Positions 17,705-47,626 of a stretch of 64,000 nt of DNA are shown here, piece by piece (position 1 is the stretch's first letter; each line of letters begins with the position of its first letter). This DNA comes from a virus. Its lineage: Duplodnaviria > Caudoviricetes. The translations under genes were made by a program, and so were the position numbers. Location of the stretch: the IMG/VR virus record IMGVR_UViG_3300044713_000064, positions 7,586 through 71,585 of that record. The stretch is one strand, 5' to 3'. The notes below the pieces were generated by a model, which did no database searches, was not told where the DNA came from, and saw only the letters and a list, made by a program, of their open reading frames with translations.

Positions 17705-18840
17705 TGGAGTTCCTTTCGACAGCGATGACTTCGTAGGTTCCGGAGCCACATGGTGTTCCGGTCAATTGGGCGACGACGATGCATTCAAGGCGGCCCGGTT
17801 TCGATTTTCCGCCGAGCCATTTGGGGGCGAATTTCTGCCACCGCGATCGGCGGTCGGGCAATCCTGGCCCAGAGATCGAATCTCCGACATTGATGGTGCC
17901 GTGAAACCCCGAGACAGTAAGAATTGGCATCGAAACTACCCTCAGATCGGCATGTCGTCGTCGCCGATCGAAGCGGCATCGACTGAGGGCGGAGCGGCGG
18001 TCGGCATCGCGTACTTCTCCGGAACCGCAGCCTCGATTCCCATCGGGCCATCGGTGCCGAGATCGGCGGCGGGCGGCGGCGCGGGCTCGACGTACGGTTC
18101 AAGCTCGTTCGCCTCGATGGTCCACCGCTGATTCTCGGTGTCGCGGACCCAAACTTCGTGGCCGTCGACCGCGAGTACTTCGGCGGGGCCTTCGAACAGG
18201 GAGGGATAGGAAATGGTATCGCCGATCCGCCAATTACGAAGATGCAGCGCGTGGATGCTACTCAGACCGAGGACTGCGGTCTTGTGCTCGGCGCCGACAA
18301 GTCGGATGTGCACATCGCTTTCGCCATCAATCGTATGAGACTTTGACTCGGATCAGCAGTTCGTCGTCCTGATGTGGAAGGTAGCCTTCAGGAAGCGGCA
18401 TCGGAGTTGTCCTTTGGTTGGTGGTGCGTGGAGTTATTTCCAAACGTATTCTTGAATCCCATTGTAGAAGATCTGACCGGGGACCTTCTGCAACTGAACT
18501 TTGGCTTTGAAGCCACAGTATGGGCAGAAGTTAACCTGAGAGGCGTACTCATCATTGCTGACCCAGAGAGAGCCATCTTCGTTCTCGCCGCAGGAAGAGA
18601 CGGCTTGTCCGTATCCATCCTTGGGAAGTTCGCCTTCGCAATCGTGAAGTTCGGTCACAATCTGGCTCCTCAGATCAGGCCGACGTACATCGCGCCGCAA
18701 ACGGCGAGGGCCGTGACGGTGGCGCCGAGCGCCAAAAAGTAAAGGGCCGCGCGGAAGCAAAACTTCTGCACGGCCTCTAAATTATTCAAAATATTGCTGT
18801 CCATCTCAATCGCCCCTTTCCCGGGTTACGTTGCCCGATC

Positions 18841-18869
18841 AATCTAGGGATAATTCTCCCTTGTGTCCA
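18841..18869 (-). promoter_or_regulatory. Leftward sigma70-like promoter with a palindromic operator in the spacer
   Basis: Minus strand TGGACA-N17-TAGATT. Operator AGGG-ATAATTCT-CCCT at 18846-18861. Confidence 0.55.
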
Positions 18870-18891
18870 CAACAATTTTGAAATTTCCGGG

Positions 18892-18920
18892 TTGTCGATT
18901 TGTTCCACGGGTGCTAGACG
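18892..18920 (+). promoter_or_regulatory. Rightward promoter, probably giving a leaderless cro mRNA
   Basis: TTGTCG-N17-TAGACG ending 7 nt before ATG 18928; no SD. Confidence 0.45.
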
Positions 18921-18927
18921 GTCGGCT

Positions 18928-19209
18928 ATGTCAGAACAAACAATGTGCCAAAATCTATTCGTGATCGCCCAGGCCTACGCCGAGGCGACCGGTCTTTCGA
19001 TGGTGACCGTGGGAAAGAAAATCCATGGAAATGGGGACTTTTTCGGCGAGTTTCTCAACGGCGATATCTCGTGCGGCGTCAATACGTACTACCAGTTGGT
19101 GAATCGGTTCCGGGCCAGATGGCCGAAAGGCGCGCCTTGGCCCCAGACGTCCCCCATCGGAAGGTTGGGGAAAAAAATCGACGCAGGCTTCGTGGACGAC
19201 AAGCGCTGA
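18928..19209 (+). CDS. Cro-like HTH regulator
   Basis: AQAYAEATGLSMVTVGKKIHGNGDFF...WPKGAPWP; first gene at the divergent switch. Confidence 0.65.
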   Translation: MSEQTMCQNLFVIAQAYAEATGLSMVTVGKKIHGNGDFFGEFLNGDISCGVNTYYQLVNRFRARWPKGAPWPQTSPIGRLGKKIDAGFVDDKR

Positions 19210-19226
19210 TAGAATGTGATTCGTAA

Positions 19227-19255
19227 GTCGTCCCATTAGGGATGTGGATCGAAAT
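19227..19255 (+). CRISPR. Solitary type I-C-like CRISPR repeat unit (no array)
   Basis: GT-CGTCCC-ATTA-GGGATG-TGGATCGAAAT: 5' GTCG, hairpin and the TGGATCGAAA 3' handle typical of I-C repeats; intergenic. Confidence 0.6.
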
Positions 19256-19280
19256 GCGAATCCGATAAGAATTGCGAATC

Positions 19281-19490
19281 ATGGAAAACTTCGTCGACGA
19301 CCAGCATGAAACCGTCTGGATCAGTATCCCGTTGGACCCACTGACGGCCGCGCGCCTGCGAAACCTGTCAGACGTTTGCCATGTGGACCCGATCGGCGTA
19401 GCAGCCTCATTGCTTCATGATGTGCTCGCCGAAGACGACGAGGCGCACCGCCCCTCTGGCGCTGAGGCCGGTGCCATCACGATCAACTGA
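19281..19490 (+). CDS. Ribbon-helix-helix-like small regulator
   Basis: Beta strand TVWISIPL then two helices (DPLTAARLRNLS, PIGVAASLLHDVL). Confidence 0.45.
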   Translation: MENFVDDQHETVWISIPLDPLTAARLRNLSDVCHVDPIGVAASLLHDVLAEDDEAHRPSGAEAGAITIN

Positions 19491-19512
19491 ACCTGAACCC
19501 TGAGGAGACGAT

Positions 19513-20004
19513 ATGGCGAGATCACCGGCAACTGGAGAAGGAAGCGCAACCGAGGCCACGACGCTGATATTCCCGAAGAAATCGGCGTGGGAAGAGGCGG
19601 CCGAGGCGAAGCGAACGGCAAAGAAGCGGGCGTCGTCGGCGAATGGAACCTTTTCCAAGGTGCTGGCACGTTTGGTCGAGGAAGAACACGTCGACCGCCG
19701 CGCGATGCGGATCGTCCTGGCTCTTGATGCGATCGAGGACGACCTCGATCTCCACACGACGGTTTACCACCTCATCGATGGCCTCAAGAAGCTCGGCGTC
19801 CTCAAGCGCGCCCAGGCGCAGGAGGAGATGTTCGACAACGACAAGATCGACACGGCGACGGCCGATTCGGTCAAGCCGCCGCGCAAGGGCCGCAAGGGAA
19901 AGGGCGCGACCGGTGATGATATCAGCGCAACCGAGGGCGGCAACGTAACCCAGATCGGCGCCGGCGCCCGCAAGGTTGCCGAGGCCGCTGGCGGACCTAT
20001 CTGA
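19513..20004 (+). CDS. Putative DNA-binding protein (distant GapR/DUF2312-like)
   Basis: SD GAGGAG; helical core ...EEEHVDRRAMRIVLALD...LKKLGV and a basic tail. Confidence 0.4.
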   Translation: MARSPATGEGSATEATTLIFPKKSAWEEAAEAKRTAKKRASSANGTFSKVLARLVEEEHVDRRAMRIVLALDAIEDDLDLHTTVYHLIDGLKKLGVLKRAQAQEEMFDNDKIDTATADSVKPPRKGRKGKGATGDDISATEGGNVTQIGAGARKVAEAAGGPI

Positions 20005-20007
20005 GCC

Positions 20008-20520
20008 GTGGACGCGCAGCCGACCCTCCCGACGCTCGAATGGCCGGCCCTCGTGGCCGGCTGTGTCTTTGTGTGCTTCGAGCTGCAGGGGGAACCTCGC
20101 CCCAAGGGCCGGCACCGGTCCCGGATCGGCTACAAGAACGGCAAGCCCTTTATGATGCAATACCCCGACCCGGACACGGCCAAATATGAGGCTGTCCTGG
20201 CCGAGGCGGCATCACTGTTCATGCGCGGCCGCGCGCCCACCGAGAATCCTGTGGCGCTGCTCGTGCACGCCTACAAACCGATCCCAGCCAGCTGGACGAA
20301 GACAGATCGGGCGCGGGCGCTGGCTGGCGCGATCATGGTGACATCCCGGCCCGATGGTGACAATTTTCTCAAGGGCGCCATGGATGCCTTGAATGGCGTC
20401 GTATGGCGCGATGATGCGCAAATCGTCGATGCCAGGGTGATCAAGCGTTACAGCGATTCGCCGGCGCTCCGCATCGAAGTCCGGGAGTTCCTGCCGCCAA
20501 ACGGTGATAAATCTCCCTAG
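20008..20520 (+). CDS. rusA: RusA-family Holliday junction resolvase
   Basis: GEPRPKGRHR, SRPDGDNFLKGAMDALNGVVWRDDAQIV, KRYS. Confidence 0.9.
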   Translation: MDAQPTLPTLEWPALVAGCVFVCFELQGEPRPKGRHRSRIGYKNGKPFMMQYPDPDTAKYEAVLAEAASLFMRGRAPTENPVALLVHAYKPIPASWTKTDRARALAGAIMVTSRPDGDNFLKGAMDALNGVVWRDDAQIVDARVIKRYSDSPALRIEVREFLPPNGDKSP

Positions 20521-20571: not shown

Positions 20572-21174
20572 ATGGCGACCAAGGGCAAGACACTGGTCAA
20601 AGCGCATAGATGGGCGCGCGAGTCGAATGAGCATTACGTCGAGCCTTTTTGGTGCAGTGAGAGGTTGTTTCAGGAAGAGAATTTTTCGCCGAGGGTCTGG
20701 GATCCATGCTGCGGCTTCGGGCGCATCCCGATCGCGGCGGCCCGCGCCGGTCTCGATGTGATCGGGACGGACATCGCTGATCGAGGATTCCACATGCTGG
20801 CTTCCAAACAGGATTTCCTGACAACTCAGCGTGTGCTCGCGGGCCACATCGTTTGCAACCCTCCGTTCACTATCGCGAGCCGATTCGCCCTTCATGCGCT
20901 GTCCTTGGACAGCGTCGATAAAGTTGCAATGATCTTCCCGACCGCGCGCCTCAATGCCGCTCACTGGCTATGCGGAACTCCGCTGATTCGGGTCTGGCTG
21001 ATGACGCCGCGGCCGAGCATGCCGCCCGGCCACACCATTGCCTCTGGCTTGAAACCTGGAGGCGGCAAGGTCGATTTTTGCTGGCTGGTCTGGGAGCGCG
21101 GATACGACGGTGCCGCACCTGAACTTTGTTGGCTGCGTCGCGATAGCAAAGGAGGAAACGATGGATCCGATTGA
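20572..21174 (+). CDS. DNA N6-adenine methyltransferase-like protein
   Basis: VWDPCCGFG (SAM-binding), IVCNPPF (catalytic), FCWLVW. Confidence 0.8.
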   Translation: MATKGKTLVKAHRWARESNEHYVEPFWCSERLFQEENFSPRVWDPCCGFGRIPIAAARAGLDVIGTDIADRGFHMLASKQDFLTTQRVLAGHIVCNPPFTIASRFALHALSLDSVDKVAMIFPTARLNAAHWLCGTPLIRVWLMTPRPSMPPGHTIASGLKPGGGKVDFCWLVWERGYDGAAPELCWLRRDSKGGNDGSD

Positions 21175-21363
21175 AGTGGTTACCCTGGCGCGGTTCAATC
21201 TGCGCGTCTGCCAGCAATCCCTCTTGCTGATTCGCGGCGCGCCCGCTGCGCCTGGAAGCATGCGGTGCACCTTCACGGATGAGGTGATTCGGGGCATGGA
21301 AGGCCGCCTTTGCCGCGCCCTCGACCTGCTATGGGCCGCCCAGGAAGCGGCCGGGCTCAACTG

Positions 21364-22215
21364 ATGCCGTGCGATCCATCGCCACCGGATCCGTTTCTCA
21401 TTGCCGAGCCAGCGCTGATTTCCTTCAGCGGTGGTCGGACATCGGCCTACATGCTTTTCCGCATCCTGCGAGCTTTCAACGGCGAACTTCCACCCGACAT
21501 TTACGTGGTTTTTGCCAACACGGGCAAAGAACGTGAGGAAACCCTGCGTTTCGTTCATGACGTGGAAGTTTATTTCAACGTCAGGGTTTGGTGGATAGAG
21601 CGGACAAGAGATGGCGGATTCGAGATCGTCGGCTACAACAGCGCCAGCCGAAACGGCGAGCCATTCGCGGCTCTGATCGCCAAGAAGCAATACACCCCGA
21701 ATGCCGTAACGCGATTCTATACTGTCGAATTGAAAATTAGAGTCATGCGGGATTTTGCCCGGTCGGTTGGATTCGAGGAATGGAACAATGTCATAGGGCT
21801 ACGATACGACGAAGGCATTCGCGTTATGAAGGCCCTTGCGCGCAACGATGAAGGCAAGGAGCGCTTTAAAGCGATTATGCCATTATCCAAGGCCAAGGTG
21901 ACGAAGGCCAATGTGATGGACTTTTGGAAAGACCAGCCGTTTGACCTTGGCCTTAAATCCTATGAGGGAAACTGCGATCTGTGTTTCTTGAAATCCAAAG
22001 CTAAGTTGTGCGCCATCATCCGCGAACAGCCGGGCAGTGCCGATTGGTGGATTGAACAAGAGAAAGTCGGAAAGGGCCGTTTCGTCACCGAACGCTCTTA
22101 TGCCGATCTTGCCAAATCCGTTCACGATCAGGGACATCTGTTCGATGGCTGGATTGATGACGATGATCATGATGCAGAATGCGGTCTATTATGCGGGGTC
22201 CCCGATGCCGCGTGA
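21364..22215 (+). CDS. PAPS-reductase (PP-loop) family protein
   Basis: ISFSGGRTSAYM, FANTGKEREETLRF, IGLRYDE, GNCDLCFLK. Confidence 0.85.
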   Translation: MPCDPSPPDPFLIAEPALISFSGGRTSAYMLFRILRAFNGELPPDIYVVFANTGKEREETLRFVHDVEVYFNVRVWWIERTRDGGFEIVGYNSASRNGEPFAALIAKKQYTPNAVTRFYTVELKIRVMRDFARSVGFEEWNNVIGLRYDEGIRVMKALARNDEGKERFKAIMPLSKAKVTKANVMDFWKDQPFDLGLKSYEGNCDLCFLKSKAKLCAIIREQPGSADWWIEQEKVGKGRFVTERSYADLAKSVHDQGHLFDGWIDDDDHDAECGLLCGVPDAA

Positions 22216-46337: not shown

Positions 46338-46403
46338 TAGCGTTGTCACTTTTTGACGTCTCGTTTGAGGCGGATTGAAAACGGGAAAGCAGGAGCTTCA
46401 TCG

Positions 46404-47516
46404 ATGGACCGGAACCAAGCAATCGCCGAGTTTAACAAGGTGAGGCACGTCCTTAACCACGAGGGCGGGGTTATTTTCGATGGCGCCCGAATGTTCATTC
46501 CCGATGAGTGGAAGAACACGGGGGACAAGTCGCTCAGACAAATGGCGTTCGATGCCGCCGGCACCTTGGGCACCGATCCGAATGCGGCGCTCCCCGCGAT
46601 GCTCACCACCGGCATCAGCCCGGATGTGATCCGGTTCGTATTTGCCCCGCTGCAGATCGCCAAGATCCTCGGTGGTGAGCGCAAGGTCGGCGACTGGCTG
46701 ATGGAAACCTACATCTTCCCGGTCATCGAGGAGAACGGCGAAGTTTCCAGCTACGACGATTATTCGAACAACGGCCGCACCGGCATCAACTTCAATTACC
46801 CGCAACTCCAGTCCTATCTGTTCCAGACCTTCGTCAACTACGGCGAGCGGGAGACCGAGCGCGCCGGCCTGATGCGGATCAACTATGTGGGTGAACTGAC
46901 CAGCGCTGCGGCCGGATTGCTCAATCGATTCGGAAACCTCGGATATGCCTTCGGCCTGGCTGGCCTGCAGACCTACGGCTTGATCAACAACCCGTACCTC
47001 TCGGCGTTTTTGACGCCCGCCATCAAGGCGTGGGGCGGGACATCATGGTTCAACGCCGGCTCGCCGGCCGCAACTGCCAACGAGGTCTACAACGACATCC
47101 TGGCGGTGGTCGAGCAGATCATCAATCAGACCAACGGTGCGGTTGAGATGGACTCGCCGATGACGCTGGCGCTATCGCCGCAGTCGCAACTTGCCCTGGA
47201 ATTCGCGAACTCGTTCGGCGTCTTCGTCAAGGATCTCCTGAAGCGCGGCTTCCCGAACATGAAAATTGTCCCCGCGCCGCAGTACGGGCAGAAAACCACC
47301 AACAACACCCAGGGCGATTCCGCCATCGGGAACGTGTTTCAGATCATCGTCGATAACATCGATGGCGGCAAAGTCGCCTATCCAGCCTACAACGAGAAGC
47401 TCCGCGCACACAAACTGATCCCGCAGGCCTCAAGTTGGCTGCAGAAATACACGAGCGGGATCTTCGGTGTTGTCACGAGAATGCCGGTTGGCATAGCTGG
47501 GATGCTCGGCGTTTAG
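46404..47516 (+). CDS. Major capsid protein (DUF2184-like)
   Basis: LTTGISPDVIR, GERKVGDW, GEVSSYDDYSNNG, YGERETERAG, YGLINNP, EKLRAH; SD AGGAG. Confidence 0.9.
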   Translation: MDRNQAIAEFNKVRHVLNHEGGVIFDGARMFIPDEWKNTGDKSLRQMAFDAAGTLGTDPNAALPAMLTTGISPDVIRFVFAPLQIAKILGGERKVGDWLMETYIFPVIEENGEVSSYDDYSNNGRTGINFNYPQLQSYLFQTFVNYGERETERAGLMRINYVGELTSAAAGLLNRFGNLGYAFGLAGLQTYGLINNPYLSAFLTPAIKAWGGTSWFNAGSPAATANEVYNDILAVVEQIINQTNGAVEMDSPMTLALSPQSQLALEFANSFGVFVKDLLKRGFPNMKIVPAPQYGQKTTNNTQGDSAIGNVFQIIVDNIDGGKVAYPAYNEKLRAHKLIPQASSWLQKYTSGIFGVVTRMPVGIAGMLGV

Positions 47517-47542
47517 TCGCTCACGAGGGCGTGGATCGAAAC
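47516..47542 (+). CRISPR. Solitary type I-C-like CRISPR repeat unit (no array)
   Basis: GT-CGCTC-ACGA-GGGCG-TGGATCGAAAC; begins on the last base of the capsid stop codon. Confidence 0.7.
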
Positions 47543-47626
47543 CCTTCCCGGGGAAAATTGTGTATGAAGCCTTAGCCTCTCCATATATAACGTGGAGAGG
47601 CGGGCTCACAACGAAGGGAAGAGATC

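Follow-up and report, generated by a model that had tools for sequence, protein, structure and literature searches.

Two shortened, solitary type I-C repeat mimics behind genes of a tailed phage: candidate RNA anti-CRISPRs

Shortly behind the first gene of the rightward block of a tailed soil phage genome lies a sequence that resembles a single repeat of a type I-C CRISPR array, and the question raised by this locus is whether the resemblance is real and, if so, what a lone repeat might do in a phage. The DNA analyzed here (henceforth the window, 64,000 nt) corresponds to bases 7586–71585 of a 71,585-bp IMG/VR record that carries direct terminal repeats, is rated complete, and has a G+C content of 59%. 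An earlier, sequence-only reading had described the element as a 29-mer located 17 nt past a stop codon, with a 6-bp stem and an 11-nt handle, and both the sequence and the predicted fold confirm this description. The unit, called R1 here, is GTCGTCCCATTAGGGATGTGGATCGAAAT on the plus strand (19227–19255), and is separated by 17 nt from the TGA codon (19207–19209) that closes an ORF spanning 18892/18928–19209. When folded alone, R1 is predicted to adopt the structure ..((((((....))))))........... with a free energy of -8.4 kcal/mol, in which a GT overhang (19227–19228) precedes a 6-bp stem with one G-U pair (19229–19234 / 19239–19244), the loop ATTA (19235–19238), and an 11-nt 3' tail, TGGATCGAAAT (19245–19255); the same hairpin is obtained in the fold of a 131-nt context. 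A very degenerate second unit had also been proposed at 19293, but we could not substantiate it, as no covariance-model match at E≤10 is found there. The sequence in question (19293–19322) sits in the variable NH2-terminus of a small acidic ORF of 69 aa that has no family and starts from ATG 19281 (19281–19490, plus strand), and its TGGATC codes for V-W-I and is present in the closest relative of this phage (G001) as well.

The term solitary, which had been applied to R1, is accurate for the locus, where no other match lies within 1 kb, but not for the genome, which holds a further unit 28 kb away. Scanning for TGGATYGAAAY returned one further exact copy of the tail (47532–47542), and these two are the only exact occurrences on either strand of the whole 71,585-bp genome. 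The second unit, R2, is GTCGCTCACGAGGGCGTGGATCGAAAC (27 nt; 47516–47542, plus strand), with GT (47516–47517) and an abutting hairpin ahead of the tail TGGATCGAAAC. Its stem of 5 bp, one of them a G-U pair (47518–47522 / 47527–47531), closes a 4-nt loop (47523–47526) at a predicted -6.0 kcal/mol, and 66 of 200 shuffled sequences folded as well or better. R2 overlaps the 387-aa DUF2184-type major capsid gene (46353–47516, plus strand) by one base, as its first G closes the TAG stop codon, and R2 therefore lies in the 3' untranslated end of this gene.

A chance origin of R1 and R2 is excluded. In 1000 genomes simulated with a first-order Markov model, the mean number of tails was 0.27, at least two tails were present in 39 genomes, and the complete architecture was present in none; GT with an abutting hairpin was found at 348 of 143,050 random positions, and the estimated probability of the pair arising by chance is about 2e-7. 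A covariance model built solely from eight natural I-C array repeats (six from genomes of the likely host order and two from metagenome arrays) and run on the window with filters off gave 13 matches at E≤10, the best being R2 (31.4 bits, E 6e-7) and R1 (28.2 bits, E 6e-6; model positions 1–32), both full length and on the coding strand. The third-best match scored 11.0 bits, which leaves R1 and R2 clear of background by at least 17 bits, and with the same model these were again the two sites found in the whole 71.6-kb genome. No Rfam family reached its gathering score in the window, and around R1 and R2 only noise was seen at E≤10. The idea of a type I-C repeat mimic is thus upheld by the match to the model, by the fold, and by the 12-nt GTGGATCGAAAY end of natural arrays, and judging from their sequences, R1 and R2 are genuine, and form a pair of shortened, solitary mimics of the type I-C repeat. 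That they could instead be ordinary intercistronic hairpins, such as a terminator or an RNase site, with an accidental likeness to CRISPR repeats is hardly credible: although both units follow stop codons, a frequent place for hairpins, the R2 hairpin is weak, and Rfam offers no match, such a reading has to contend with the chance estimate, with the separation from background, and with a 12-nt end identical to that of natural arrays.

The natural arrays examined here have repeats of 31–33 nt that start with GTCG or GTCA and end with GTGGATCGAAAC or GTGGATCGAAAT, and spacers of 33–36 nt. According to the available portions of PMC8524198, I-C repeats have a 7-nt stem, a 5-nt loop, and overhangs of 2 nt and 11 nt, for 32 nt overall. 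Neither unit has these dimensions, as stem, loop and total length are 6 bp, 4 nt and 29 nt in R1 and 5 bp, 4 nt and 27 nt in R2. Both, however, fold as GU, a stem-loop, and UGGAUCGAAA(U/C), with a 2-nt 5' overhang and an 11-nt 3' overhang that begins with UGG. Cas5c recognizes U22-G23-G24, the stem base and the 3' overhang, with the loop and the 5' overhang being irrelevant, and remains on the 5' handle within Cascade, as stated in the accessible text of two studies (PMC8524198; PMC5965381). All the parts reported to be recognized by Cas5c are retained in R1 and R2, which differ in the parts that are tolerated. The two hairpins are less stable than those of natural repeats (-8.4 and -6.0 versus -12.5 to -14.6 kcal/mol); their stems are unlike each other, and unlike the natural ones, yet still pair. 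The 27 nt of R2 align in order to the repeat type of genome G177 with five gaps, while the class nearest to R1 is represented by two metagenome arrays, GTCATCCCC...GGGGATGTGGATYGAAAT. No array of the R1-like class was found in 401 genomes of the likely host order (there was one single match), and none of their arrays contains the 3' arm of R1, GGGATG.

The host is probably a member of the Rhizobiales, as the best matches of the capsid protein among bacterial records are from Rhizobium sp. ASV20 (71%) and an uncultured Rhizobiales metagenome-assembled genome (68%), with the next-best being mostly alphaproteobacterial. Type I-C systems with the same tail do occur in this order: at least six GTGGATCGAAAY ends on one strand, which was our threshold for an array and was counted by eye, were present in 25 of 401 sampled genomes. 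One metagenome-assembled genome that bears a related phage contig (G007) has cas5d and a 13-repeat array ending with GTGGATCGAAAC, and on the array-bearing contig the Cas_Cas5d gene (149 bits) is found about 5 kb away. The Rhizobium isolate with the closest capsid (G006) has neither Cas5d nor an array. None of the 13 spacers of the G007 array matched the phage, and a comparison of 207 spacers from 11 arrays to the phage and its relatives also gave no match, with nothing longer than 21 nt with one mismatch. A single full-length I-C repeat, GTCGCCCCTCGCGCAGGGGCGTGGATCGAAAC, was also seen in a bacterial chromosome with two tail-motif matches (L123, G043:C4:1278279-1278310), which may be a prophage solitary unit or an orphan repeat.

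With regard to the genes around the two units, a crude gene map shows leftward genes up to about 18313 and rightward genes from 18892, and R1 thus follows the first gene of the rightward block, which encodes 93 aa from ATG 18928 (18928–19209, plus strand). The label cro that had been given to this gene is a guess, given that the protein has no Pfam match, belongs to PHROG 7669 (unknown function), and resembles HTH folds weakly, with E values above 1. Its AlphaFold model (pLDDT 75) shows a weak likeness to lambda-repressor-like HTH domains (best E 1.2, TM 0.48), and it is possibly an HTH regulator. The divergent intergenic region at 18805–18927, between the leftward block (whose end is at about 18313/18804) and the rightward block, is the likely source of a transcript carrying R1. 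A simple promoter scan identified no plus-strand promoter near R1 or R2, and minus-strand predictions only at 18805–18927; no RNA run is listed for 18700–19700, and the runs compared are DNA contigs. Both R1 and R2 are located between ORFs, on the strand of the flanking genes, and transcription would therefore give the orientation that Cas5c needs. Downstream of R1 are RusA, a DNA methyltransferase and a PAPS-reductase-like gene. The latter two, a methyltransferase of PHROG 799 (20572–21174) and a PAPS-reductase-like protein of PHROG 424 (21310–22215) in the rightward block, may provide DNA modification or anti-restriction functions. Behind the capsid gene, the motif (C)CCGGGGAAAATTGTGTAYRRAG is followed by a hairpin whose sequence is different in each genome, and this arrangement is found in the window (47543–47601), just past the capsid stop in four loci of relatives (L003, L004, L005, L009) and in the homologous locus of G001 (L002, 5106–5160), in relatives with capsids of 66–99% identity. 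This may be a late regulatory or RNA-processing site, and TTGTGT recurs in the divergent control region as TTGTGTCCACAA (18861–18872). The hairpin at 47574–47601 was considered as a psi-repeat and rejected, as the hairpin that follows this motif in relatives has another sequence.

Comparison with sibling phages provides information on the age of the two units. In the closest relative (G001, 73,218 bp), the capsid protein is 99% identical and the DNA is 87% identical over 18802–19524, and exactly 33 nt are missing, namely GTAA plus R1 (19223–19255, plus strand; the placement is ambiguous by 1 nt). In G001, the palindrome GATTCG CGAATC is unbroken at the point where this block is inserted. Contigs from two further soil-metagenome runs of other studies, X2 (72,507 bp) and X3 (4,317 bp), also lack R1; they skip 19208–19255 and have 15 other letters instead. 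In all three of these siblings, the perfect 12-bp palindrome divided by R1, GATTCGCGAATC (core TCGCGA; window 19217–19222 plus 19256–19261; L019, about 1915–1927), is uninterrupted, and the ancestral site could form a long hairpin, because a second GCGAATC lies 15 nt downstream. R1 is absent also in the more distant G003 and G004, hence in five of five relatives, and R2 is absent behind the capsid stop in 11 of 11. In place of R2, between the capsid stop and the conserved motif, G001 has an ORF of 318 aa resembling HNH/endonuclease VII proteins (L002, 4175–5131), and homology to the window restarts at CCCTTCC, the end of R2; the position behind the capsid gene is an insertion hot spot. In G001–G005, exact tails with a hairpin are absent, and model matches reach at most 18.5 bits. 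Conservation in relatives is not seen for either unit, and there is hence no sign of long-term selection; R1 and R2 are best described as recent gains, that is, insertions of 25–33 nt just behind genes. One relative (G002:C1:28551-28566; L215 1501–1516, minus strand) does contain GTCGG plus TGGATCGAAAT, the ends of an I-C repeat without the stem-loop, at the start of a possible 178-aa ORF; this site scores 18.5 bits (E 0.005 for that genome), and may be due to chance or be a remnant.

Compared to G001, the window also shows 11 substitutions and no indel at 19289–19313, 10 of which (19289–19310) occur also in X2 and X3. Starting 34 nt downstream of R1, this patch alters six codons in a row in the 69-aa ORF. 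We rejected it as a copied second repeat, because it has no indels, is in frame, and falls in an NH2-terminus that varies among relatives; it may reflect ordinary mosaicism, as this terminus is variable in G003 and G004, too. Searches for a source of the units gave little. Exact R1 was not found in viral contigs, nor were R1 and R2 with free loops, and R1 with a free loop was not found in metagenome contigs; DNA from 18600 to 20100 had no match among isolated phages, in which a natural repeat had two weak matches. The 17-mer GGGATGTGGATCGAAAT was present in 69 metagenome contigs, two of which are arrays (L160, L209); five matches that looked solitary (L146, L149, L168, L199, L200) fall within a conserved coding region and were set aside as chance matches. 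Off-target integration by Cas1-Cas2 was not adopted as the route by which R1 arose, because target-site duplication is missing at both R1 and R2.

The sequence that follows each unit has a further property. The 36 nt after the R1 tail (19256–19291, plus strand) are the phage's own sequence, and in G001 their homologue, with mismatches at positions 13, 15, 34 and 35, directly adjoins TTC. The same holds for the sequence after the R2 tail (47543–47578, plus strand), which is the start of the conserved motif and whose G001 homologue, mismatched at positions 7, 10, 32 and 34–36, also adjoins TTC. The two G001 junctions read ...CCCGATTC|GCGAATCC... and ...GATTATTC|CCTTCC..., and the first of them, at the R1 site, is common to X2 and X3, in which the letters between the joints end with ...GATTC. 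TTC is the I-C PAM, according to the available text of PMC8406640. Since TTC occurs at about 0.02 per position (range 0.0185–0.025), the probability of finding it at both junctions by chance is about 4e-4 in one register. The carrier's own copies have AAT or AAC where the siblings have the PAM, and because TTC stands directly ahead of the homologous sequences, each locus is arranged like a repeat plus a sibling's protospacer. However, the adjacency at the R2 site may be luck, as the TT belongs to G001's own HNH-gene insert, and TTC is missing from the R1 site of G003 and G004. Nor was TTC enriched just upstream of 12 other solitary units described below, where it was found by eye within 14 nt in 4 of 12, and sibling searches for two of these units returned the source contig only, plus, for one of them, six distant matches (34–39% identity). 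Overall, the TTC junction suggests an array-templated origin of the units or the targeting of siblings. A broader scheme, in which one repeat placed between the TTC PAM and the sequence that follows would account at once for an array-templated birth, for erasure of the PAM (and hence escape), and for a one-repeat crRNA against siblings without the repeat, appears unlikely to us.

The notion of a crRNA-like guide deserves separate consideration, as the sequence-only reading had raised it and had suggested a search for partial matches of 19256–19292 next to a TTC PAM. Such matches are present in G001, X2 and X3, but not in the cas loci of G007 and G177, where no TTC plus seed match to either of the post-repeat sequences was found, and 8–10-nt seeds without TTC only. 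The version of the guide that relies on a second repeat is unsupported, since the second repeat is missing, whereas a guide with a single repeat is possible because the sequence after the repeat matches siblings beside a TTC PAM. Once Cas5c has cut, the latter would consist of the 11-nt tail and the downstream phage RNA, acting as a crRNA that turns the host Cascade-Cas3 on siblings without the repeat, while the carrier's copy would be safe because the repeat replaced the PAM. Both G001 homologues directly behind TTC, the R1-site junction in X2 and X3, and the finding of repeat-less siblings in other soil samples are in line with such a guide, and a precedent is provided by viral mini-arrays with spacers matching related viruses, as described in the accessible portions of PMC8616872 and PMC11656645. 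On the other hand, there is no second repeat to set the 3' end, and I-C Cascade would have to assemble usefully on such an RNA. Position 7, which is mismatched at the R2 site, usually lies in the seed, and the limits of the TTC evidence mentioned above (the HNH-gene origin of the R2-site TT, and G003 and G004 without TTC at the R1 site) count against the guide as well, so that it must be regarded as a rather doubtful alternative.

A guide of the Cracr/crlRNA type, in which a repeat plus a partially matching spacer would steer Cascade to repress a host cas or toxin promoter, is far less probable and, in our view, very unlikely. Type I-C viral crlRNAs do exist, as seen in the available part of a preprint (bioRxiv 10.1101/2024.10.29.618823), but a model search detected no psi-repeat after R2 or at 19293, each unit is followed by ancestral phage sequence common to relatives, and the cas loci of G007 and G177 lack a TTC plus seed match, although this is a limited test, as the true host may differ.

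If instead the units were born when repair or recombination templated on a host I-C array that had taken up these protospacers copied a repeat up to the border between PAM and protospacer, removing the PAM, they could be functionless scars in decay. Array-templated recombination or repair would fit the junctions, because homology would stop exactly at the PAM border. The start of each insert is the exact expected end of spacer homology, the orientation is that of a repeat followed by a spacer, the lengths of 27 and 29 nt, versus 31–33 nt in all eight natural repeats, are as expected from decay, the units are found in no relative, and the phage encodes recombination functions, namely RusA and a PHROG resembling exonucleases. 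A point mutation in the PAM is, however, a far easier way to escape. Furthermore, both units have an intact 12-nt end, GTGGATCGAAA(Y), and pairing is preserved in their shortened stems, as if under selection; two different donor arrays would also be needed, because R1 and R2 differ at many positions. The searches for free-loop versions described above provide no donor array (none for R1 or R2 in viral contigs, none for R1 in metagenome contigs). Our literature search retrieved no description of array-templated copying of a repeat into a phage, and the word "recombination" occurs zero times in PMC10651486. We therefore view a scar as an improbable explanation.

Units of this kind are not limited to this phage. 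The 16-mer GGGCGTGGATCGAAAC was found in 43 viral stretches, in 12 of which it is part of a GT, a hairpin and a tail that occur singly in the locus. These 12 units measure 27 (two), 29, 30, 31 (three), 32 (four) and 33 nt, and 5 of 12 lie -1 to 16 nt behind the stop codon of an ORF on the same strand. Two different shortened units (L233 and L237; 27 and 29 nt) are found together on a phage-like viral contig of 35,920 bp, mirroring the pair in the window, and one of them is located just upstream of an SSB-like gene. Direct repeats with a score of at least 6 flank 5 of 14 units, as opposed to 7.8% of mismatched flank pairs, and abut the unit in 4 of 14 (L257, L268, L271, L274), which do not include R1 or R2. 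At L271, these are a perfect 7 nt, GTTGCAG, preceded by TTC, at L268 they are 8 nt, and at L274 and L257 imperfect 11 nt. Abutting direct repeats resemble a target-site duplication, which hints at a separate, integration-like route for some of the other units.

Taken together, we favor the reading, to which we assign a probability of about one half, that R1 and R2 are Racr-type repeat mimics that would be transcribed in sense within phage mRNAs and would titrate the host I-C effector. R1 is a Racr candidate because it is solitary, intergenic and in sense orientation in a phage without Cas5d or Cas1. R1 would have been gained behind a gene in a rightward, early-type block and R2 behind the major capsid gene, and both would be carried, in sense, by phage mRNAs. 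If the host has a I-C system, Cas5c would then recognize the stem base together with the UGG and the 11-nt tail, cut at the predicted sites, which fall between 19244 and 19245 in R1 and between 47531 and 47532 in R2, and stay on the tail, with Cas7 and Cas8c loading on the phage RNA in place of the host crRNA. The effector would be titrated in this way, as in the Racr-type RNA anti-CRISPR mechanism, and the two sites might allow for both early and late expression. That R1 and R2 are transcribed, bound and cut by Cas5c, and capable of affecting immunity is what we infer from these observations; a plain decoy does, however, leave unexplained why TTC should stand beside both target-like sequences in the sibling.

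With respect to solitary repeat units (SRUs) as defined in the literature, no other full or partial repeat was found within 100 bp of R1 or R2 (none within 1 kb with the model at E≤10), and both are intergenic and away from cas genes. The earlier statement that cas genes are lacking holds for the two families searched, Cas5d and Cas1, which are absent from the 71.6-kb genome. SRUFinder demands at least 90% identity and coverage to a known repeat from a database of 17,823 repeats, as described in the available text of PMC10651486, and neither unit reaches this value against the eight natural repeats. Short forms may hence be missing from published lists, because R1 (about 79%) and R2 (27 of 32 positions, with five gaps) would fail the rule. 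Units of 27–29 nt recur elsewhere, and the two in this phage keep what Cas5c reportedly reads, and screens based on 90% coverage may undercount them.

The basic reading proposed here is not new, since solitary-repeat RNA anti-CRISPRs, including one of type I-C, are already known. RacrIC1, from a Bifidobacterium pseudocatenulatum prophage, is an I-C SRU located 11 nt behind an acrIC5 homologue, with which it is co-transcribed, and it rescued a targeted phage, according to the portions of PMC10651486 at hand. Like R1 and R2, RacrIC1 is a solitary I-C repeat a few nucleotides behind a co-oriented gene in an element without cas genes, the distances being 11 nt for RacrIC1, 17 nt for R1 and -1 nt for R2. 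Unlike RacrIC1, whose upstream gene encodes an AcrIC5 homologue and whose activity was demonstrated, R1 and R2 follow an HTH-like ORF and a capsid gene and are candidates; they also have shortened stems (6 and 5 bp, in 29 and 27 nt), are two different units in one genome, and are fresh insertions relative to siblings. This last feature offers a clean before-and-after view, in which a solitary repeat is caught as a fresh insertion of 25–33 nt against close relatives, whereas the origin of solitary units is not addressed in the accessible text of PMC10651486. If the PAM junction proved to be general, it would link anti-CRISPR repeats to spacer-protospacer recombination or to the use of host CRISPR by one phage against another. 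RacrIF1 and SRUs at large (PMC10651486) have repeat mimicry in common with R1 and R2, and the action proposed is that processing and backbone Cas proteins are sequestered in aberrant complexes; RacrIF1 differs in that it is of type I-F, where Cas6f sits on the hairpin, while in type I-C Cas5c sits on the tail.

The other known systems share parts of this picture. Cracrs (bioRxiv 10.1101/2024.10.29.618823), which in the accessible text include listed I-C examples, have in common with R1 and R2 the idea of a phage-borne, repeat-derived RNA that uses host Cas proteins, but they bear psi-repeats, and their spacers are a partial match to host cas or toxin promoters; neither feature was found here. 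In viral mini-arrays (Faure 2019, Medvedeva 2019; via the available portions of PMC8616872 and PMC11656645), the sequence after the repeat matches relatives of the carrier beside a cognate PAM, as it does for R1 and R2; their spacer, however, lies between two repeats, one of which may be truncated, whereas here there is one repeat followed by a contiguous "spacer" that is the phage's own and has become PAM-less through the insertion. Last, the I-C array repeats of the likely host order (G007, G177, G175) have the GT overhang, a C-G closing pair, the hairpin, and the GTGGATCGAAAY end in common with the two phage units, and differ from them in being 31–33 nt long with 7–8 predicted pairs and in standing in arrays, compared to the 29 and 27 nt and the 6 and 5 pairs of the solitary R1 and R2.
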